Of a DNA stretch of 47,740 nucleotides, positions 1,415 through 43,861 are shown in pieces. Source of the DNA: Rozella allomycis CSF55 (taxonomy: Eukaryota); assembly GCA_000442015.1 (NCBI GenBank), contig KE561067.1, forward strand, positions 62,001 through 109,740. The letters are read 5' to 3'. A program made the position numbers and the translations under genes. Position 1 is the first letter of the stretch. Every line of letters begins with the position of its first letter. The notes below the pieces were generated by a model that was not told the origin of the DNA, ran no database searches, and saw only the letters and a program-made list of their open reading frames with translations.

Positions 1415-2889
1415 TTATTTCAGTTTTTTGACTAGCTCGACTAATACCACCTTATTATCCGGGGACTTTAAATCAAGTGATATTTGAATTTACAACTAGG
1501 GAGAGCTCAATAATAATATATATAAACTCGACCACCAAGCACGCTTTACAATCATTGTTGGAATATACTATTATTTTTTCAAAAGCTTCACGATAATTTT
1601 CAAATGCTTCTGCGGACACCTGTTCTTATAAATATCTTAAAAGTTACAATCAAAGGGTACCTGAGCAATAAATTAACCGAAGCAAGTCTCGCTAGTCTAC
1701 CCAAAGAGAGATCAGTGATAGCCAAAGCCGTCATAAATTCGAAAATCAAGCTAGCCTCTTCGAATGTAATTCTTTCAATTTTACTCAAATGAAACAGAAA
1801 TTCCAAATCGATATTGTCGTATCCATTTAAAATCAGCTGCCGTGAAAAGTTTAGAATACAACTTTACTGTATAAAAGGATCTAACAAAACTGAAATGGAA
1901 AGATTGGAATGCGTAACAAGTGTAAGAATCATTCTGATTAACACATTACGCAAGATATCGCTCTTATGATATTCCACTAATGAAAATATTAAATGCTTGT
2001 AGCACTGAACTGCAAACAGAGGCTTGTTATGAAGCAAAGTCTCGCATAAATCAGAAAGATATAGAAAGGAAAGCATTTTATCACCGACCGATTTTTGGCC
2101 TCGAAGCTGCATCAATGAAAACTATGATACATACTCTAAGAATTCTATTAATTAGAATGTTGAATTGTTCTTCTGTTACAGAGAGATGTAGAATCATTTG
2201 ATATGCCAAGAAACTCTTTTCATCGAGGCTAGATTCTTATTCACTTCAGGCCTTATTGTTACTCGAAGAAAATTCAATGATGTTTAAAACATTTTGTTGA
2301 AAAAAATTAACGAGTTCAATATCGTCATTGTTCACTTCAAATAGTATATGTTGTCTTACCTGTGCTAATTCAACAAAGGCGTACTCATCATTTTGTAGAA
2401 TTTTTAAGAAATAGTTCAACATATTTGAGTTATAGGTATCTGATCTATAGATTGCTATTAGTAAAGAGCTCAATGTCTTATATTTGATCCTCTTTTCATA
2501 ATCCGTGATTTGGGGGATATAGATATCCTGGATCCTCATTTATTTCTATCTTCCGATTTACCATGTTTTTATGTATTCATCATTAAAATTCTGTGATTTA
2601 AGTAGTTTTAGGATAACCTGATGGGTCAAATGCAATATTTCATCATTTTTGTTGTCTTGTGTAATGGAGGATAATATCGTTAAGGAATCTATTCTGTCTT
2701 GAATCGTTTCTTTATTAAAAAATGTAAGTAGATCGTCTGACTCGAGAATAAGATTTAGCCATTTTGAAAGTTTATCTATAAATTAGCTGGCGAAAATCTA
2801 CCACAATCATTTGATAAGTCACTAATTTCTTTAACCTTACTCACTTTTAAAGCGGTTCTATTTAAATACTGCTTGCTGGTTTTTGTCAT
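1415..2889 (-). CDS. Uncharacterised alpha-helical protein with 6-8 ultra-short introns, including an apparent GT-CG intron at 1841-1867
   Basis: One continuous frame after removing 26-28 nt introns. Contains the block YKHLIFSLVEYH..SVLLDPFIQQLILNGYDNIDLEFL. Start uncertain (ATG 2889 or 2915). Confidence 0.6.
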
Positions 2890-2996
2890 AATGTTGTGAG
2901 GTAGTTAGTTACCATTTACTATCAAAGCATGAATGAAGAAGAATCTTTTTCTACAAAAAAGTAAAAACTTTATTCTTTATTTTTAAAATGTTGTTC

Positions 2997-3446
2997 TCAC
3001 AAAATCTTACAGGAAATGTAGATTATTGAATAAAGAAGAAGAGTAGGAAGAAATGTTTTTACAACTGACAATTTGTCAATAAAGGTACCAAAGAAAAACA
3101 TCTTCAACGCTATTTTCAAGACATCAATAAATCCTAATTCTTTGCCATTAATTGCATACAAAACATGATGGTGACAGTTGCACGTAATCAAGTTGTGCAT
3201 TCTAGATCCGAAAATCTGGTTGCTAATTTCTATGTTGGAATCCCACTCAGTTTCTTCATTTTTTTCTATGTGATATTGTAGGTAGCGAGTAGGCGCCCCG
3301 AATGCTAAATTCCCTCTCCCGATATGAAAGGGGCCTGCAAAGTCAAATACAGTTCCGGTCGAGTCGGTAATTCCAACATGACCTATAACTGGCAACATGT
3401 AAGTTAATATTGGTATAGGTGTCCATACGATACAAAAAGGCCTCAT
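2997..3446 (-). CDS. TMEM222: TMEM222/RTE1-like (DUF778) membrane protein
   Basis: PFCIVWTPIP..LPVIGHVGI..G..FDFAGP, LAFG.PTRY and HNLITCNCHHHV motifs; intronless. Confidence 0.9.
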   Translation of the reverse strand: MRPFCIVWTPIPILTYMLPVIGHVGITDSTGTVFDFAGPFHIGRGNLAFGAPTRYLQYHIEKNEETEWDSNIEISNQIFGSRMHNLITCNCHHHVLYAINGKELGFIDVLKIALKMFFFGTFIDKLSVVKTFLPTLLLYSIIYISCKIL

Positions 3447-5707: not shown

Positions 5708-6131
5708 CCTACTTCGAAGGACTTGGTTTTTATGAATATGCACTTTGCCTCTCCTGCTGCTAATACCTCAGCTCAGGTGTCTGTTTGTTACGATCAATTG
5801 TTTGAAGTGGACAAGGGATTTGTAGTTAGGTTGATAAAGTAATGAGAAGCTCGAACTCTCAATTATATTTCTCATACTATATTTAGTTATGCTATACGGC
5901 TATCAGAAATCGTAATCACAACTCATTAAACGATTAATTGATTTAGATGAACGTGAAAGTCCTCGAGACAACAATTTAGTAAGAGGCGCATTAGCTATTT
6001 CGGAATTACAAGGAATGCTAGATTTGACAGTTGATGACGGTGACCACAATGATGCGGTATGCACCAAATTTGAAGAAATTATGGTTTGGATTGGTATTTT
6101 GATTGACAAGATAAAGATGTTGCAAAAGTAG
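5708..6131 (+). mobile_element. Second diverged copy of the viral module: MCP C-terminus (5708-5842) plus small ORF copy 2 with an internal TAA (5889-6131)
   Basis: TSKDLVFMNMHFASPAANTSAQVSVCYDQLFEVDKGFVVRLIK* followed by MLYGYQKS*SQLIKRLIDLDERESPRD...KIKMLQK*. Same order as copy 1, with many substitutions. Confidence 0.65.
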
Positions 6132-17951: not shown

Positions 17952-19901
17952 ATGCTTCCCAAGACGAATGATCCAACGTCCTGGAAAAAATATTTTGAAT
18001 CACGATCGGATTATAATGCGTTAAGGATGTTACAGTTATTTTCCACAGCCGTTCAACTCATCCCACAATCCCGTTATAAAGAAGACGAAAATTACCTTAC
18101 TCTTCTGCTCAATTATGCGATTTTATTGGCGTATGTAAAGAATATAATAGTTTCAAATAGGAAAACAGAGATTATTCTGATGTTTTTGACCAGCTGAAAT
18201 CTATCAACCATAAAGCTTACGATGAAAACGAATTCGTGTTGAGAACCAGATTAAAATTACTTCAAATGACTGGTATAATTTTAAATTACTGATTTTAAGA
18301 CGAAACTTATAAAGCTGAGGACATTTTAAGAGAATCTCATTTGAATTCTAATTTGATATCTGATTTGCGTGAAAAAATAGAAGCTGGTGAGAGTGTAAAT
18401 CTTGGGTTTAATGTATAAATTATTGAATGTTTAAAAAAGTTGATCTACAATCCCTTCAGAGAGCAGGATGCTGGTGATGATGTGGACACAAGTGACGAAA
18501 AGGAGAACGAATATGAGGAAAACAAATATATTAATTCTAAGCCAGAGTCTACAGGAAAAGTTCGCAAGTCTGGACTTTGTAATTTTGATTTTGATTGTTG
18601 ATTAGCGGGCAAAGCAATGAAACTGAAAGACATTTTAGCAATGGCGGAACAAGATGATGAAAATGAATGTGCAAACGTTTCCACTTTGACTGCAGAACAA
18701 ACCTTTGGTCTTTCTGAATGTACCGTCAATTCTTCAATTTTGAAGAGCCCTGATAAAACTAAGCCTCTATGTGAGATTGAATTGGCGGGAAATCTAAGCC
18801 CGCCTTCAAGATTAAATGAAAAAACCGAAATTATAGAGGTTATTGAAAAAACTGAACATGATTATCAAAAATTTAAAGAAAACATACCTAAAACTCCTGA
18901 TGTTGAATTCAATACAGTTGAGAAAGATTTAAATCAGTTAATGAAAGAAATAAAGCCAAAATTGATTTCCTTTGGGGAATCTCAATATTTTCGGCTCCGG
19001 ATGATTGGTCGAGGTGGCTCGAGTAAAGTTTATCAGGCGTTGTCGCCTACTGGAGAGTTGGTGGCACTTAAAAAGGTATCTCTTGATAATTCTGATCCTG
19101 AAATAATAAATGGCTATTTTTCAGAAATTAAACTTTTAAATGCACTTCAGAATTCAGATTGGGTGGTTAACTTGAAGGAACATTTTTCAGACTCTAAAAA
19201 TTTGTTTATTGTAATAAATACATTTTACGTTTTTAGGTTCTAGAGTTGGGCGAAGTCGATTTACATCATTACCTAAAGCAAGTCAAGGGAAAACCTGCCG
19301 TCATTTATAATCCCATGGTAAAAAGTATTTTCAGCCAAGTAAGCAACTCTTTTGTCTAATTTATGATAATTACGGCAGTTAAATCTCTTCATGACTTTGA
19401 TTACATCCATTGTGACTTAAAGCCAGCAAACTTTATCTTAATTGGCGGGTTTTGGAAACTCATAGATTTCGGAATCAGCAAAAGAGTAGAAAAAAACCAT
19501 ACTAGCGTCATCAGAGAAAGTCAAGTAGGTACTGTCAGGTAAAAATTCTACTTTGCAATTAAAGCTACATGTCACCTGAAATGATCATTGACTCACAAAA
19601 TAGAAATAATGGTGTCTCAAAGGTATTTTTTCTTTTTGATTTTAATGAGATTGGAAAGCCAGCTGACATTTGGTCTATCGGATGCATTTTGTACCAGTTT
19701 GTTTATGGACAACCCCCATTCTCGCACATACCCTCTTTAGTGCAACGGATAAAGGCCATTATAGATGATTCTTTTCAAATTAAATTTAATGAGAAACCTG
19801 AAATGTCAGTTTTGATAGATATCACTAAAAAGATCCTCGTCAGGCATACCAAGTCTAGACCTACAATCGAAGATTTAATAAATTATTCGTCAAATTTTTA
19901 A
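17952..19901 (+). CDS. MPS1: Mps1/TTK spindle checkpoint kinase (8 introns; GT-TG intron at 19339-19365)
   Basis: TPR-like N-terminus; IGRGGSSKVY, ALKKV.L, ELGEVDL, IHCDLKPANF, KLIDFGI, RESQVGT..YMSPE and DIWSIGCILYQFVYGQPPF. Confidence 0.93.
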
Positions 19902-26446: not shown

Positions 26447-27899
26447 ATGTGGATAATCTTTTTTATCCTTATCATGGTTATCCTGCTTGGAAGACTCTTC
26501 AGGACTAAGAAGGTCGTCTTTTTCCATCCCTTTTGTATGTCGTTTGGTGGTGGTGAACGTGTTTTGTATACGTGGATGAAGTTTTTGAAAAATGATAAAG
26601 AAATAATGATTTTAACCGGAGAGAAATCAATAGATATAATGAAAATCAGGGTAAGTTTTTACCTTGTTGAAAATAGGAACGATTTGATATTGATTTGTTN
26701 AATAGGAACGTTTTGATATTGATTTGTTAAACTACCCGATAAAAGTTGTTTCATTGCACACAAGAAGATTATTGGATCCCCTCTTGTAATAATTTATGAT
26801 GATAGTCACAGATTTCCTATAGCAACTTTATTTTTCCAAATTTTAGGTTCTTTAATCATAGGTTTGGATTGTTGCGCCAAATTACTTTTCAAAAGTCCTG
26901 AAGTTCTAGTAGATACAACGGGGTGCGCTTTCATCTACCCAATAATTAAATTGTTCCTTGGTTGTAAAATTGTATCCTACGTACATTACCCTTTCATAAG
27001 GTAAAAATTGGTTGGTAAAATGAGAGTTCCGATATGCTTCAAATGGTTTCAAAAAGGGAATCAAATTATAACAACAAAAATTATATCACTAATAACAGTG
27101 CATTGACACAAGTTAAACTATATTACTACAAAATTCTATCTTTTGTATATTGTCTATGTGGTTCATTTGCTGATGAAATCCTCGTGAACTCAACGTGGAC
27201 ACACAATCATATCATCGAATTATGGCAAAACCCCGAAAAGACTCACATTGTTTACCCCCCATGCGGCATTGAAAAACTAATAAACATTGATATAGTAAAG
27301 CCAAGAAATCCTATAATACTATCTATCGGGCAATTTAGGTATTATTTTGATAAAATTTAAATAAGAAAGGAAAAGAACCATCAGTTGCAAATAGAGGCCT
27401 TTGCAAAATCTAATGCCAGGTCTACGCATAGGTTGATATTAGTCGGCGGTTGCAGGAATGAAGAAGATTATAGTCGCGTCTGTGAGTTAAAATCATTAGC
27501 GAACATTTTAAATGTATCAGAGAGAGTAGAATTTAAAGTGAACGTGAGCTTTGATGAACTGTACAATCTCCTTACCCTTGCAGACATTGGAATTCATACA
27601 ATGCAAGATGAGCATTTTGGAATATGCGTTGTTGAATACATGGTATACTTTGCATAAATACAATTTAGGCTGCGGGTCTTATTCCCATCGCTCATAACTC
27701 AGGTGGCCCCAAATTGGACATTGTCGATGAAAAATGTGGATTTTTAGCTAAAAATGCTGAAGAATATTCGAATTCTATTAATGCCATCCTTTCAATGTCA
27801 ATTAGGAAAAAGCAAATGTACCGAGAAAACGCACGATTGAAGATTGAGCAAACTTTTTCAGAAAGTCAATTCGCCAATAATATAGAATGCTTATTTTAA
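26447..27899 (+). CDS. ALG11: Alpha-1,2-mannosyltransferase Alg11 (5 introns; N26700 overlap)
   Basis: FFHPFC..GGGERVL, YVHYP.ISSDML, NSTWT.NHI, VYPPC, EHFGICVVEYMAAG and HNSGGPKLDIV. Confidence 0.95.
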
Positions 27900-27971: not shown

Positions 27972-29304
<1,333 letters not shown>

Positions 29305-29505: not shown

Positions 29506-30563
29506 CTAGTTTGTGTATGGTTCAAGTGTTTTCATCGCTGTAGAATATGCAAAGAATGTAACCGCGTTAGTTGGAAATGCTCTCACTATCGTTGCATTTA
29601 GTCCTCTAAAGAAAAAGTTTATGCCATGATTCTTATAATGATCCTTAAAAACAGCCCATGTATTTCTATAACGAAAAGGTTGATCGAAATGTTCCGACTG
29701 CATGACTGTCTTTACTACGTCAAACGGATAAGTTGTTATCCAACTGCAAATACCCGCCATTCCACCTGCAAACATTAAAAGCATTGGATTTAACTGAGAT
29801 GAGTCTCCGTCTTTCGAAAGTTTTCTGCAAATGTACTCGTAAGATGAAAAATAGGCACCGTAACTTGGCGTTTCACGTAAAATAGTAGCCGATATTCCTC
29901 TAAAACATCCTCGAAACCCTTTAACGCGATAGATTCTAGACAAACAATTAAATGTCCCTTTATATGCATTTCTGTCTCCTTTTTTGACTTGATTCTGAAG
30001 CTGAATTTTGGCTAATTCTGTTGGCCCAGAAATGATGCTGTTCAAAAATCCTGATCCAGCACCGGCAACAAAAATTTGCTCTAAAGAAGGTTTCCTTTCA
30101 TTTCACTATAAAGTTATTACTCTTTGGGATCATTTAATTGGTAATTTAGGATAGATCCATAGACTCCAAAAAGGAATGAGTTGACAAGAGTCACACCAAT
30201 CATTGGCGCTGATATTCCTTTTAAAAGACCTAGAGCCAAAAAATGAAAATAAATCGTTTTACTGATTCTTCTTTGACAATCGTTTTAAAACAATGAATGG
30301 TTCCTTTATACTTTGGGTTTACAACATCTTGACTCTGTAAACGGACCTATTAGATAAGATAAAAAGTATTTAAGTATTTACTTTGACGGTATCAAAAGGT
30401 TGACCTGCTAATACACCTCCAAGACCTTTCATTAGGATATTGCATTGTTACCGGCGAATGTTCCAGAAATAAAGTTAGCTATGCTTGGATGAATGAATCC
30501 TTGTACATTGTAATCATCAGTTGGATTAATTTGCCCCGTATCTAAATTTGATGAATCTGCCAT
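29506..30563 (-). CDS. Mitochondrial carrier, SLC25A29/45 / Ymc-like (4 introns; GT-TG intron at 30237-30262)
   Basis: Three Px[DE]xxK repeats (PFDTVKVRLQ, PTELAKIQLQ, PFDVVKT); RETPSYG and RAFPTN. Confidence 0.92.
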
Positions 30564-30826: not shown

Positions 30827-33800
30827 TTATTTTTGAATTGGCTGCAGATTATTTAATATCAGAGTGGCTAATGCAGAACCAATTACAAAGTTGCCTTCAT
30901 TTGTTATGTCCTTTAAAGTTGAAATTAAGGTAGAATCACACGGAAAATTTGGATTTTGCCATTGTTCAGCCATTTTTAGTAAAAGTTTTAGTAAATTGAT
31001 TCTAATATTTGGATGATTCTTAAGTTTGTTAATTTTCCCGATGAAAGACTCAATAACGGAAGGAATTGTCAATGAGAAACATATGTCTCTTGAGTCTGTT
31101 ATTAATTTAAACAAAGAGTTGGTTATTGATTCTAAACTCAACGTCGCATAATTGCACAAATCTATTAGAAAAGTTAGGTTTTCATTCAACAGCAACGTTT
31201 TCTCCACATAATCCCTATCTTCATTGAACCAAGAGCAAATGGCTTCTAAAGAATTTGGAGCCCAATATTCATCTTCAAGCATTCCAATTAGAAACAAAAG
31301 CAAATCATTTTCCTTTAAAAGTGGTCGACATTGGCTAGTTCGGGCCATTTCACAAAGAATTGGAATTGTTAGCGATTTTCTACTTCCACCTCCAACAAAA
31401 GTTAGTTTCATTAATTCAGGAATTACATTATTGGATGTAAATCTAAAAATTCTGCTAGAGTTTAACCTGAAGAGCTTTAGGCCAATCAACAAGGCTTGAT
31501 TTTTTATTTCCTCTTATAAAAAACAATAATTCTGTACACTTATAAACGCATAATTTGGCTCCTTTAAACAATCCGCCAGAATCTCAATGTAGTCCAAATG
31601 TTCCAGTAAAGGATGTGAAATTTCCAAATCACATATGTTCCTAAGTACTTTAATCCAGAGAAGAATGTGTTGGTTGCTTAGTTCATAGAATAGTAATTGA
31701 AAATCTATTTATTACGAAACCATATATCATACTAAATAATACAGCATTCGTGCAGAACTTTTCTTTAGTACCATGATCTGCATTTGACAAAAGCAATAAT
31801 ATTGATAAAGCATCCTTGCATATTCCTTGTGATATTTCATCATCCTTAATGCTAAAATCATTTATTATTTCAATAAATCGAAGAATGTGCTGTTCACAGG
31901 ACAATATCCTACAAATGTCATTTTTAGAGAAATGGTGTTTGAAAAGGTTGCCAATGCAGAAAATGCATCGTGCGATAACGCCACGATCGGATGAATTCAA
32001 AACATCTAACATGACTTTTACCCCATCACAGGCAACAAATGTTGCAACTATTTCTTTAAATGAACAAATAATTTCAAGTGAAATGGAAAATGTTTCTAAA
32101 CATTCGTAAAATGGGAATCTTAAAANACATTCGTAAAATGGGAACCTTAAAAGAATAGGAATTCCTCCTAATTTTGAAAACTTGTCGATGTATTCAAAAT
32201 CCTTTCTAACAATCAAAAATTAAAATAATATTATTATATTACTTGATTAAATAAGTTCAAAACGTGTTCTGATCTATAATGTTCCAGGGCCTGGATAAAG
32301 TCAAAATAACCTTTAGATTTGATAAACGGTAAACGGGCTATTGGATACTTTCTAATCCCAGAAACCTAAATAATAATAAGCCAAATATAATACCAAATTT
32401 TCACAGTGCAACTTTATTTGACTTTGTTCATATCGTCCACATTGTAAAAGGGAATCCCAAGACATCTCCAGCCATTTTATTTCTTCTCTTTCTTCAATTG
32501 GCACTACTATGAAATCTTTAGACTCAAGCCTAATTAATTCCAACTCTGCCAGGTCATCAATTGAATCTGCAATCGATACTTTCATTTTGCTTATTTTTAA
32601 ATCCGCGTCATCATTTAGCTTAAATGCCAAATTATAATCTTCATTTTCATCCTCAATAGTAGAAGAAAAATTTATTTTATTAGGCGGACTGGAATTTTCA
32701 TTCTTAGACCCTTGCACAAATTTCAGTAACGTGGAAGCGTCCACGTCATCCCAATCGTCATCATCTCCTTTTATATCGCCTATCATACTAACGTTTTCAT
32801 CGATTAGTGACGATTGGACTATTTGTTTGGATACGTACTCCCCCTTTCGAACCACAGAACCCTCAGCAAATTCGCTATCATCGATAGAATTCACAAATTC
32901 ATCCAAGTGGCCCATGGCTGATTCAAAGTTTTCTTCATCATTAAGCATATGCTATATTTTTCGATTAAGATTATAGAATACCTTTTCATGGCCTTTTGTA
33001 ATCCATGGGTGACGTAGAAGCTTTGAGGCACTCACCCGCAAATTGACATCCTTTTGGAAAGTAAGCATCAGAAAATCTTTAAGAGCCTAAGTTTTAATCA
33101 ATTGGCATTTTGCTACATTAGATATTCCGTCTGGAAGCGGTGGATGCTCATCATTAACGATGCGATACAATGCTGCCATTGGAGACAGATGAAAGTATGG
33201 AGGTTGGCCTTGAATTAATTCAATAGTAGTGCAACCAACACTCCATATATCCGACCCAGTGTTAACACCTGATAATTCAATGACTTCAGGTGCCACTTAA
33301 TTTGATAGTATTTAGCTTTATTACTCCAATAAGGCGAGCCTATTATCATCGAGTCGTCTTGAGTGTCACTAAATCCCACGCTGACACCAAAATCTGCTAG
33401 TTTCACCCGACCATCTTTTGTCGTCAATATATTGGCTCCTTTTATATCTCTATGAATAACTCCTTGGTCGTGGAGAAAACAAAGCCCTTTAAGAACTTGC
33501 GATATATAAAAGCTAACCAATGATTCAGGAATTTTTCCAAACTTTTTACAAATTGTTACCAATGAACCATTTTCGCATAGCCTAACAATCAAAAAATGGC
33601 TCTTTACTCTAACATTATATTCAAGTATCCGTCTTCTTCTGAAGACCCGATATATTCCACAATGTTGTCATGTTTGAGCCGTTTTAACAACTCTATTTCA
33701 GCCTGTTCTAAAGCGTTAATGTTATTACTCTGATAGCTTCCAACTCTGATTTCTTCATGCTTTCGCATTTAACTTGTTTAATCGCTATACAGTTTCCCGT

Positions 33801-39594: not shown

Positions 39595-42500
39595 ATGAAT
39601 GACTTTTACCAGGAAAAAATAATAGAGGGTGAATTTAAATGGACAAAATTTCACACTATATACAAAAGATTAGCATGTTGCAAAAGTGTTTTACTTTCCG
39701 TCTACGATGAACAAGGGAATGAAATAAAGAAAATCAGTAAAGAAAAGGATATTAAATATGTGGAATGGCACCCCCAACGCAAATTGATGGCATATGCCAG
39801 CGGTGATGATGTATATGTTTGGAATGAAACTGAAGATCGAGAAAATGTCAAAAAAGTACAGGGTAATAATATCGTTTGTTGGAATGCAATCGGAAATAAT
39901 ATTTTGATTGGAAAAGAGGTTAAATCATTTAATATAAATTAACGTTTAGGATGGAAGCGTTGTTTGTTTTAATGTAGAGGTTAGTGGAAAGATGGGCAAA
40001 GAGAGGTTGTTGTATGAAAACAAAGGGAAAAAGAGAAGAATAAATAAATTATATTCTGCGGAAGGGGATATAATTGTAATAATTTACGATGGAGATATTG
40101 TGATAATTAGCAAGGAAGACATTGTTGAGAGTGATGTACAGGGGAAGATAAAGGAATCTTTCCTAAAAGAAAATAAGTTGGTAGTTGTTTGCGAAGATTT
40201 GTTTGTTAATAAATATGATTTAGAAAGTTTTGAAAAGATTTCAATAAAATTGAGTAACAAGGGAAGAGTTGAATGTGTAACATGGATTTGTGGCAAAGAA
40301 GGAGTAAAAATGATAACGAGTGATGAAAAAAATGCGATAAAAATTTGGGATATTGAAGGATTGGGATGTGAAGAGATTGAATTAAAAGAAGAGTTTAAAT
40401 CCAATAGAATCACATGTCTAAATAGTTTTCACTCGGATATTCTGGTAGGGACTGATTCTGGCCATATATTTAAAATTAAAGTCGGCAATCAAAAGAACGA
40501 TGAAATTATCGACAAGGATTTGAATAAAGACAATAAATGCCAACCAACTGAAAAATTTCATGAACTACAATTGACTGAATTTTCTGGCGGAGGTTTCATT
40601 GAGCAAATTTTCTTTCTAAAAGAAATGATTGGAATAAAGTTGAAGAACTTTGTCAAGATATTAAGTTTGAAAAAACGATTAATTAGAAAAGAAAACGAAC
40701 AGGCTTTAATACAAAGTGATTTAAATAAAATAATTCTACTTGATAATGAGCGAAAATTTGAGATAAAAGAAGACTTTGAAATTAAGGAATTTTCAGGTTC
40801 TAAAAATAGATTTGCGGTTTCAAATCTCGAAGACATAAAAATTTACGAAGATTTTAAACAAAAAATTAGTTTAAAAGAGAACCATCAAAGAATTTATATG
40901 ATTAATGAGGCAAGTGACACAGATAATGAAAAATCAGACGGGAAAGGTAAAATTAACAAGTCTTCAATTATAGGAAAGAAAAATCCACAATCCTTCTTGG
41001 CAATCGTTGATTTTAATTCTTTAAAGATATTTGATTGGAAAAAGGGAGAAACAATATCTGCATTGGCTTTTGAAGAAATTATTTTAGAATCTATATGTTT
41101 TAACGACAAAATAATCTTAATAAATTCAAATAGAGAATTGATTTTAATTAAATTCGATAAAATTGTGGAGACAATGAAATTGGATTTCAATCATGAAATT
41201 TATCAAATTGAAATGAACGAAAATTTCGTTGGCATCTCTTCCAGTAAAAGCATTACTTTTATTTATAAAGAAAACCAATTATTTTTATTAAATTTAAACA
41301 CTTTTAAATATTCCAGCTTCTCAATAAACTCTGATTATTTTGTATTCGATTCGAAATTCCCCAATTTGATGCTTATCCAGTCCACAAATATAGTACAAAT
41401 CTTAAACTTTTATAAATTAAAGGTTTCTTTTGGATTTATTACAAATATACTGGAATTAGAGATATTTTCAACCAGATATATTTATGAAATTTCGCGATCT
41501 ACTAATGAAATTTCTGAGTCTGAAAATGCTCCCGCGAACGCTACAAAAACTTTTCAAATAATGTTTTCTAATTTTAATTATTTTAGTATATTAGTTTTAG
41601 AAAACAATGATTTTTGTTTGAAGAGGATAGATTTCAATTTTGACTTTTCACTGGATTTTCTATATGGCATTTTAATCAACGGCAAATTCTTCAAAGTTGA
41701 AGATGAAAAAATTCTTAAGATTATGGCAAAGTTCTATTTAAATAATTTTGAAAAGAATTATGAAATACTGAAAGAGTGTTTGATTAAGTTAAAGAAACCA
41801 ATTTTCATTCTTACTGGAGACCTTTCAAGGGACAAAATGATCATAAAATCTATTCTTGGTATTCCCAACGAATCCGAAAGTAATATTATCGAGGATAAAG
41901 GCAATATCCCTGTTATAAACGAAAAATGCCATTTTAACATCGAAAAACTACCCAATGACAAGAATACAATGCCTAAAAACAATAAAATAGATATCGAAAC
42001 TAATTTTGCGACACCATATTTTCAAGGTGACGACGAATTGGATCGTGAAATTTGCAATCTGAAAAATTCCATGGAAAACATTCAATTACTTAAAAATTCA
42101 TTTTCAAATAAATCCTGTTTACTTCTTAATTATCCAGAAGCTTACAGAATCGTAGGCAGGTTGGAATTTGATGGAAAAATTAACAATAATGACTTTCCTT
42201 CCCTTTCATGCTTTGAAACCTCAAATTCGTTCAACTTGTTCAAAGGGCAATTGTTGGAATCTGTAGGCTTAATATCGGAAGCTGATATGTACTACAAAAA
42301 GTCTAATAATTACTTTTATTCAAATAAACTATCAAATTCTGTATTCAATATCGATCAAATCGATGACAAAATGACCCTTTTTCATGTCGCTAAATCTTTG
42401 CAGACCTCAAATGTAAATTCCTAATTATATCTTCAAGAGGTTAATCAATCTATAAAGGCTCTTACCAAAGCTGGCTGCTTTAGATATGCGTCTCTCCTAG

Positions 42501-43861
42501 CAAAAGAAAATCATTTAGATATTGATTTATTGAATTTAGCTTTGATGGCCCCTCTTTACATTCTTCTTGATGCTGCTCAGTAACTCCTGCTTGATCTTGT
42601 AAAAAGATATTTTGAGAGCGTTAAAGATTATGAAAAAGCTTTTCTCTTATACAAGAAGGCCAATTATAATGAAAATGCACTGATTGTAGCCTTCATTGGC
42701 CAAAATCCTCATTTGATTGATCAGATCATCGCTTGCTCAATTCAATTGAGCATAAAAGAGGAATTAATAAATGACATTTCCATGTATCTTTCAAAACTAG
42801 GTATTATATTATGTATACTTATTTCTAGGTAATACAATCGCAAAAAGTTCAAAGGCAAAACTGAAAGTATAGTAGATTTGTTAACCAAGACCGGAAATCA
42901 CTCCCAAGTACCTCAATCGCGTTCATTTATTTCAAGGCAATTAAGATTTGTAAAGAATTTGGTATTAAAATGCCAAATCAATTGGCATCCATAGCATTTA
43001 AATCTCAGGACTCTCTGATTGACCTTGCCAATCTTTGTATAGAACAAGAAAATTACGAAGCTGCCTGTAAAGCTTTTCTTCAAGTATTAATGAATTAATT
43101 AATTTTCCTAGGCTAACGATTATGTCAATGCTGCAAAGTCATTAATAAAAACGGGAAACTTGGATAAAATAATTAAATTTGCAAGTAACGAGCTATATTT
43201 TCATGTAAAGATGTCGCCGGCGCTAAAGATAAACAAGTTTACATGTTGACCGCCAATTATCTTCAAACCCTGGATTGGCGGTCCAATGAATCTTTGCCAA
43301 GGGCTATTATTTCCATACTAACAAAAGCAAAATCATTTACTTCCCTAAACAACTTTTATTTTCAGTTTGCTTCTTTTGAAATCCATGATTATCAAAATTA
43401 CGAAAGAGTAACGATGTGATTTTTCCTGCGTTTAAGGCTTTGAACATATACAATGAAATGATAAAAATCAATCGCATGGGAACAAATACTAAAATAAACA
43501 TGAATGACATAATTAGAAAAATTGATTTGATTTCAAAGTACTTGGAAATGAAAAAGGCGCCAAGCTTGAGCCATTGCATTAGCATGGCAAATAAATTGCT
43601 CGATATACCCGACATAAATGTAAAACCTTAATTTTAGTCTCAAAGGATCATGTCAAAATTCTTGATATTCACTCTGGTTTGGTTTACAAAGCTTGTGAAT
43701 TCATGGAATGGTCAAAAGCTAAGGATTTGTTAACGAATATATCTAACATCCATTCGAACTTGATTGATTGTGTTGATTTTGATACTATTTCTGAAATTTG
43801 CACGCACAACAATATTCCACTAGAAACATTCATACAAAGTTACGAAAATGATTTAGAATAA
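39595..43861 (+). CDS. IFT140: Intraflagellar transport protein IFT140 (divergent WD40 N-half, TPR C-half; about 11 introns)
   Basis: EWHP..LMA; spliced C-terminus AKENHLD..L.NLAL, AAKSLIKTGNLDKIIKFANV, ANYLQTLDWR and EIHDYQNYERAL. Confidence 0.88.

Follow-up and report, generated by a model that had tools for sequence, protein, structure and literature searches.

Recursive splicing is usually discussed as a means of handling very long introns. For short ones, intron definition is an established concept. Zero-nucleotide-exon ratchet points are described in Drosophila Ubx and in about 200 fly introns (bioRxiv 10.1101/006163). In Schizosaccharomyces pombe, two zero-length exons are reported from spliceosome profiling; the example given is a 336-nt intron in a non-coding snoRNA host transcript (bioRxiv 10.1101/226894). 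Stwintrons (spliceosomal twin introns) are reported from Pezizomycotina and Lipomyces and undergo consecutive U2-type splicing (PMC9024468, PMC8469720, PMC7138796). The first-pass annotation of the locus described here had given long animal introns and ascomycete stwintrons as background; this background is incomplete, since zero-length exons are reported from fission yeast too.

We have identified, in a coding gene of Rozella allomycis, an early-diverging, flagellated and parasitic fungus, an intervening sequence of 54 nt that divides exactly into two minimal GT-AG introns. All positions are those of the window, the whole 47.7-kb stretch of DNA that was analysed (47,740 nt). As in the fly ratchet points described in the cited report, a 3′ splice site is followed immediately by a 5′ splice site (AG/GTA, the slash marking the junction) inside the removed stretch, and departure of the upstream part would bring the exon to the next 5′ site. 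Flies subdivide very long introns in this manner, whereas in Rozella the whole measures 54 nt and its parts 26-28 nt, and the use of the inner sites is predicted. With the S. pombe cases, as they are summarised, the locus shares the fungal setting and an inner 3′ site adjoining a 5′ site; the case detailed there is in a non-coding transcript and is backed by spliceosome-bound RNA, whereas the Rozella gene is coding, its segments are minimal and the use of its inner sites is predicted from sequence. The likeness to stwintrons, in the accounts cited, is that of a complex intervening sequence in a fungus, with consecutive removal predicted for Rozella. Stwintrons have an external intron whose donor, branch point or acceptor is split by the internal one, which makes the order of removal obligatory, whereas the Rozella units merely abut and could leave in either order. 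A stwintron reading was rejected, as both units have complete GT...AG ends and neither lies within a signal of the other.

Each unit carries the features of the ordinary mini-introns of Rozella, namely a G/GTA(A/T) donor, an (A/T)(A/T)AG acceptor and a modal length, and the difference from these is that two of them stand without an exon between. Either segment alone is competent for the organism, by its sites (33rd-63rd percentile) and by its length. By its length the stretch does not fit a single canonical Rozella intron, 54 nt lying outside the 24-36 nt of 95 of the 101 predicted introns and above the 41 nt of the longest credible single intron in the window. Among the publications searched, judged by titles and abstract openings, no report was found of abutting minimal introns in a tiny-intron organism. 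We infer that the case is a variant of the known zero-length-exon recursive splicing, here between minimal introns, for which removal in two steps is predicted.

R. allomycis introns are reported to be short, about 30 nt (PMC6349667), and the lowest fungal intron median is given as 29 bp, the species being listed in a supplementary table (PMC8042348). The window has a GC content of about 35% and uses the standard genetic code. In the frame 39908-43015 (1036 codons), all TAA and TAG codons before the site at 42801-42854 fall within GT-AG mini-introns, and the last stop codon of that frame, at 42992, comes after the next intron has shifted the frame. This confinement of the stops to short GT-AG stretches shows that the code is standard and that the short stretches are introns; a ciliate code (TAA/TAG = Q) was dropped, since the stops sit in GT-AG mini-introns.

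The intron catalogue was made ab initio for this one window with a Viterbi gene-finder, using codon log-odds from long ORFs and splice matrices from a first pass, with the site models trained on the same window; the final run allowed tandem introns. Altogether, 101 introns were predicted, of which 95 measure 24-36 nt (both units of the tandem counted). Retention of 96 of the 101 would lead to a frameshift or a stop, and these are required; the other five are in frame without a stop and doubtful. With tandem introns permitted, the gene-finder picked one only at the IFT140 site in the whole window. For the 92 model introns used below, the two units and one intron that lies beside an N were left out of the 95 short ones; the 92 have 24-36 nt and a median of 27 nt. 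Credible single introns in the window range from 24 to 41 nt, again with a median of 27 nt, so that 54 nt is a clear outlier in length and 28 and 26 nt are modal.

Six predictions are longer than 36 nt and were each looked at individually. The 41-nt intron listed in Table 1 has neither a shorter in-frame alternative nor an inner AGGT; it looks like a real intron and is the longest credible single one in the window. The earlier statement that the 54-nt stretch is the sole intervening sequence above 36 nt was nearly right, this intron being a probable exception; three other loci may also hold longer introns. Three further long predictions were rejected: a 55-nt intron at 26651-26705, which contains an N inside a 29-nt duplication and is probably a 26-nt intron; a 105-nt intron at 19318-19422, an artefact that would delete the catalytic loop of a kinase; and a second 41-nt intron, at 30271-30311, which would delete a conserved mitochondrial-carrier motif. 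As a separate observation, the segment 6840-6983 (minus strand) separates two blocks of an ankyrin-like repeat protein. It can be read as a single intron of 144 nt, or else as exons of 48 nt and 3 nt set among three weak mini-introns of 30, 27 and 36 nt; alternatively, it may be the boundary between tandem paralogues.

Table 1 Features of the IFT140 locus and longer intron predictions in the window
Feature	Position	Strand	Remarks
Coding region assigned to IFT140	39595..43861	+	ATG to TAA, 1329 aa after splicing
Required intron	39919-39949	+	31 nt
Required intron	42413-42439	+	27 nt
Required intron	42580-42606	+	27 nt
Upstream exon	42607..42800	+	Ends ...TCA AAA CTA G, phase 1
Unit 1	42801..42828	+	28-nt GT-AG mini-intron, GTATTA...TTCTAG
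Junction AG/GTAAT	42827..42833	+	Acceptor of unit 1 directly followed by donor of unit 2
Unit 2	42829..42854	+	26-nt GT-AG mini-intron, GTAATA...TCAAAG
Downstream exon	42855..42907	+	53 nt, encodes (G)KTESIVDLLTKTGNHSQ; gapless against P0004 (fish IFT140) and P0003
Next ordinary intron, required	42908..42936	+	29 nt, phase 0
Required intron	43084-43111	+	28 nt
Required intron	43185-43210	+	26 nt
Required intron	43408-43436	+	29 nt
Required intron	43620-43645	+	26 nt
GT-AG intron that looks real	32202-32242	−	41 nt; protein-kinase/armadillo-like gene
145-nt prediction	5839-5983		Weak model with duplicated peptide
227-nt prediction	2836-3062		Probably joins two separate genes

By sequence similarity, the gene is IFT140, a flagellar gene that encodes a subunit of intraflagellar transport complex A. 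On exon 1, the Pfam profile of the first IFT140 beta-propeller (PF23383) scores 28.9 bits (cut-off 27, E 6e-7), and the TPR domain shared by IFT140 and IFT172 (PF24762) is found just upstream of the site with 33.7 bits (cut-off 26.8). The C-terminal exons match the IFT140 chains in PDB from human (8fgw_E, E 6e-11), Chlamydomonas (8bda_G, E 5e-11) and Tetrahymena (8hme_D, E 6e-9), and the spliced model aligns in blastp with the fish IFT140 P0004 over 427 columns (E 4e-47). The rest of the gene is intact as well and follows IFT140 colinearly up to the C-terminus. The second IFT140 propeller was recognised by neither Pfam nor the PDB sequence search. For the divergent N-terminal 950 aa, the homologue search yielded nothing but the truncated model of Rozella itself and a WD40 protein that is unrelated, and the PDB search returned no IFT140.

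At the site, the exon ending in CTAG is followed by GTATTATATTATGTATACTTATTTCTAG (28 nt), GTAATACAATCGCAAAAAGTTCAAAG (26 nt) and GCAAAACT, in this order, with a zero-length exon (ratchet point) between units 1 and 2; the exon after unit 2 opens with GC AAA ACT. With both units out, the translation reads MYLSKLGKTESIVDLLTKTGNHSQ. When unit 1 is taken out and unit 2 kept, a stop is met 15 codons further on, and when unit 2 is taken out and unit 1 kept, a TGA follows after 12 codons; if both are kept, an in-frame TAA is supplied by the inner GTAA. Much of the first-pass annotation is borne out here: it had placed a 28-nt GT-AG unit directly before a 26-nt one at 42801-42854, and both sequence and coordinates match; it had noted an exact split at AG/GTA into two units of modal length, and the mode in the window is indeed 26-28 nt; and it had stated that removal of one unit or of none leads to a stop, as all three incomplete products do. 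Since each of the three ends prematurely, errors would give no full-length aberrant protein. Such a pattern would be expected where mis-spliced forms have to do no harm.

Between the flanking exons, one to three GT-AG introns can be combined in 369 ways that leave no stop. Seven in-frame parses were compared, as spliced proteins, with two full-length IFT140 homologues, P0004 (fish) and P0003. The parse that removes the 54 nt and the 29-nt intron came top of the seven with both, reaching 175 bits with P0004 (the six others 159-167) and 164 bits with P0003 (the six others 153-157). It has no gaps at the site against either homologue, ...SMYLSKLGKTESIVDLLTKTGNHSQAIKICKEF... being aligned residue for residue, and it matches the spacing of PF24762 exactly, with 25 residues for profile positions 348-372 (between 347 and 373). 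The best score, the gapless alignment and the exact Pfam spacing together confirm, at the level of protein comparison, that all 54 nt must be removed; the colinearity with IFT140 that the first-pass annotation had claimed for this product is thus upheld.

It is very improbable that the gene is spliced otherwise, for instance with unit 1 coding and a 47-nt intron at 42829-42875, or by another in-frame combination. There is no shortage of stop-free combinations, and the gene-finder itself chose the 47-nt version before tandem introns were allowed, but the six alternatives score 7-14 bits (P0003) or 8-16 bits (P0004) lower and need gaps, where the version with the 54-nt and 29-nt removals is gapless against both homologues and keeps the exact PF24762 spacing. 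The 47-nt parse, moreover, introduces a hydrophobic insert that has no counterpart in the homologues.

All four splice sites of the two units are of ordinary quality. Ranked by leave-one-out scoring among the sites of the 92 model introns, the outer donor of unit 1 (3.63) stands at the 33rd percentile of real donors and its inner acceptor (3.87) at the 63rd percentile of real acceptors, while the inner donor of unit 2 (4.50) and its outer acceptor (3.11) are at the 49th and 41st percentiles, respectively. Scores as high as those of the inner sites are reached by 4% of the other GT and 8% of the other AG dinucleotides in the window. Inside the 92 ordinary introns (2305 positions), AGGT does not occur at all. 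In a simulation, 200000 introns of 54 nt were generated, which kept the real ends and had their interiors drawn from a first-order model. Of these, 1402 (0.7%) had a central AG/GT with both parts of at least 24 nt, and in 449 (0.22%) both inner sites also reached at least the 10th percentile of real ones, which puts the probability of a central AG/GT in a 54-nt intron at about 0.002-0.007. Four such sites so arranged exist in only three places in the window, both strands considered; besides the IFT140 site, these are a real intron followed by coding sequence and a place antisense to a gene. The rarity in the simulation and the window-wide count show that the two-unit anatomy is real and not a product of chance. 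No branch-point motif could be defined for Rozella introns.

From the quality and spacing of these sites, the 54 nt are probably two complete mini-introns joined head to tail at AG/GTA and removed successively via the zero-length exon; the use of the inner sites and the order of the two steps are predictions from the splice-site patterns. Intron definition would operate over the span of about 27 nt that is customary in this organism. Pairing of the outer 5′ site at 42801 with the nearest competent 3′ site, 28 nt off at 42828, would release unit 1; the exon end CTAG would then meet the intact 5′ site of unit 2 (G/GTAATA) in the same context as before, and the 3′ site at 42854 would then serve for the removal of unit 2. 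It would be equally possible for unit 2 to leave first, with the same mRNA as the outcome. As each unit is the immediate flank of the other, two spliceosomes could not sit side by side, and the reactions would have to be successive.

The same mRNA would also result if the 54 nt were a single, ordinary but long intron removed in one step via 42801 and 42854, with the central AG/GTA idle, either a relic or a coincidence. This we regard as rather unlikely: the outer sites are of normal quality and intron lengths are not strictly capped at 36 nt, the 41-nt intron being probable, yet a central AG/GT of real quality is seen in only about 0.2-0.7% of the simulated 54-nt introns and AGGT in none of the 92 ordinary ones, and 54 nt is far beyond the 24-36 nt that hold 95 of 101 introns. 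Moreover, inner sites that are competent and lie at the preferred spacing would be expected to be good competitors of the outer pairing.

The DNA itself is genuine. Comparison runs X1, X2, X6 and X7 consist of DNA contigs without joints and are, for that reason, silent on splicing. Contigs of X1, X2 and X6, from three studies, cross the 54 nt without an indel and differ from the window within it by two substitutions only, 42805 T>C and 42814 T>G, both in unit 1. These spare the splice sites, and the variant donor of unit 1 scores 4.31 as compared with 3.63 in the window. A third difference, 42790 T>C in X1, is a synonymous one in the upstream exon. The AG/GT junction is unchanged in X1, X2 and X6, which adds little weight for conservation as these are about 99% identical overall. 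Two metagenome loci considered as relatives were rejected, each being a 19-residue match at 51% GC, and no related species was found in the metagenome contigs searched. That the 54 nt are an assembly artefact, or part of a decaying gene and not a functional intervening sequence, is highly unlikely. The window does contain scaffold-join duplications of 27-29 nt at N positions, but neither an N nor a repeat occurs at the site, the three assemblies of three studies share the 54 nt bar the two substitutions, and decay is at odds with the remainder of the gene, which is intact and stays colinear with IFT140 as far as the C-terminus.

The N positions merit a remark of their own. Those at 1385, 5654, 7839, 14858, 20469, 26700, 28996, 32126 and 46715 each lie in or beside a two-copy tandem duplication with units of 27-29 nt, 112 nt or 494 nt, which look like uncollapsed contig overlaps at scaffold joins; the X1 and X2 contigs omit 27 nt at 28970/28984. 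Such duplications give rise to false repeated peptides in gene models and to the false 55-nt intron at 26651-26705.

As to the origin of the units, no similarity was found between unit 1 and unit 2. A tandem duplication of the upstream exon end as the source of unit 1 is not supported, since 901 of 5000 shuffles and 16% of window segments equal its local alignment score of 16. Unit 1 shares its first 10 bases, and 19 of 28 positions in all (score 13), with the 28-nt intron at 32366-32393 on the minus strand. The resemblance is not significant, as 0.12% of intron pairs reach this score and 92 comparisons would be expected to give about 0.1 matches of this kind.

The first-pass annotation had gone further and proposed that longer introns are tolerated only as concatenated minimal units. 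As a rule this finds no support: the window offers one such case only, and the 41-nt intron without an inner AGGT looks real. A rule of this kind, by which the Rozella spliceosome would have an upper limit of about 40 nt and longer inserts would survive only as chains of minimal introns spliced via zero-length exons, is in our view doubtful. Against it stand also a 54-nt GT-AG candidate in the kinase gene described below, which is in frame and lacks a central AGGT, and the segment 6840-6983, which may be a 144-nt intron. If true, it would imply a genome-wide class, of about 1 in 100 introns judging from the window, and would be the first case in which recursive splicing acts in short-range intron definition and not in the removal of very long introns. 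A spliceosome tuned to a fixed short span would then handle a longer insert only piecewise, which is the opposite of the usual constraint. Narrow intron length distributions are found in Rozella, Paramecium, Stentor and nucleomorphs, and the reason for them would, on the same condition, become directly testable.

The public gene models of Rozella IFT140 deserve mention. The model P0001 (R. allomycis CSF55, 815 aa) is 100% identical to the long IFT140 exon, lacks a portion of the first propeller and stops at the 27-nt intron 42413-42439, which it leaves unspliced. In a large protein collection, no protein of at least 113 aa contains the exon 42608-42799. This absence and the end of P0001 at 42413 suggest that public models do not include the C-terminal TPR third of Rozella IFT140. 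As these are apparently truncated at the unspliced 27-nt intron, gene finders for the Rozella lineage need mini-intron and tandem-intron states. Within the long IFT140 exon there are also two in-frame, stop-free GT-AG stretches on the plus strand, 40947-40973 (27 nt) and 41393-41422 (30 nt), which the gene-finder removes and the public model keeps; homologues are highly divergent there.

Elsewhere in the window, two genes contain apparent mini-introns with non-canonical ends. The Mps1/TTK-like kinase gene (17952-19901, plus strand) has an in-frame TAA at 19357-19359, in the helix before the HCDLKPAN catalytic loop, which no 3n GT-AG intron of normal size removes. Taking out a 27-nt GT...TG stretch (19339-19365) yields SIFSQIITAV, colinear with SYWKNMLEAV of human TTK. 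The canonical options are a 40-nt stretch, which leads to the wrong frame, and the 54-nt stretch 19325-19378, which preserves the frame, lacks a central AGGT and results in a poorer protein. The candidate explanations are a 3′ splice site other than AG, an error in the sequence and a nonsense allele. In the mitochondrial-carrier gene (29506-30563, minus strand), a protein colinear with what we take to be the carrier signature consensus, also used for 30271-30311, needs 32 nt to be removed at 30230-30262 (GT...TA or TA...AG). A canonical 33-nt GT-AG intron at this position meets a stop, and the compared strains are identical there; 30230-30262 is apparently a second non-canonical mini-intron.
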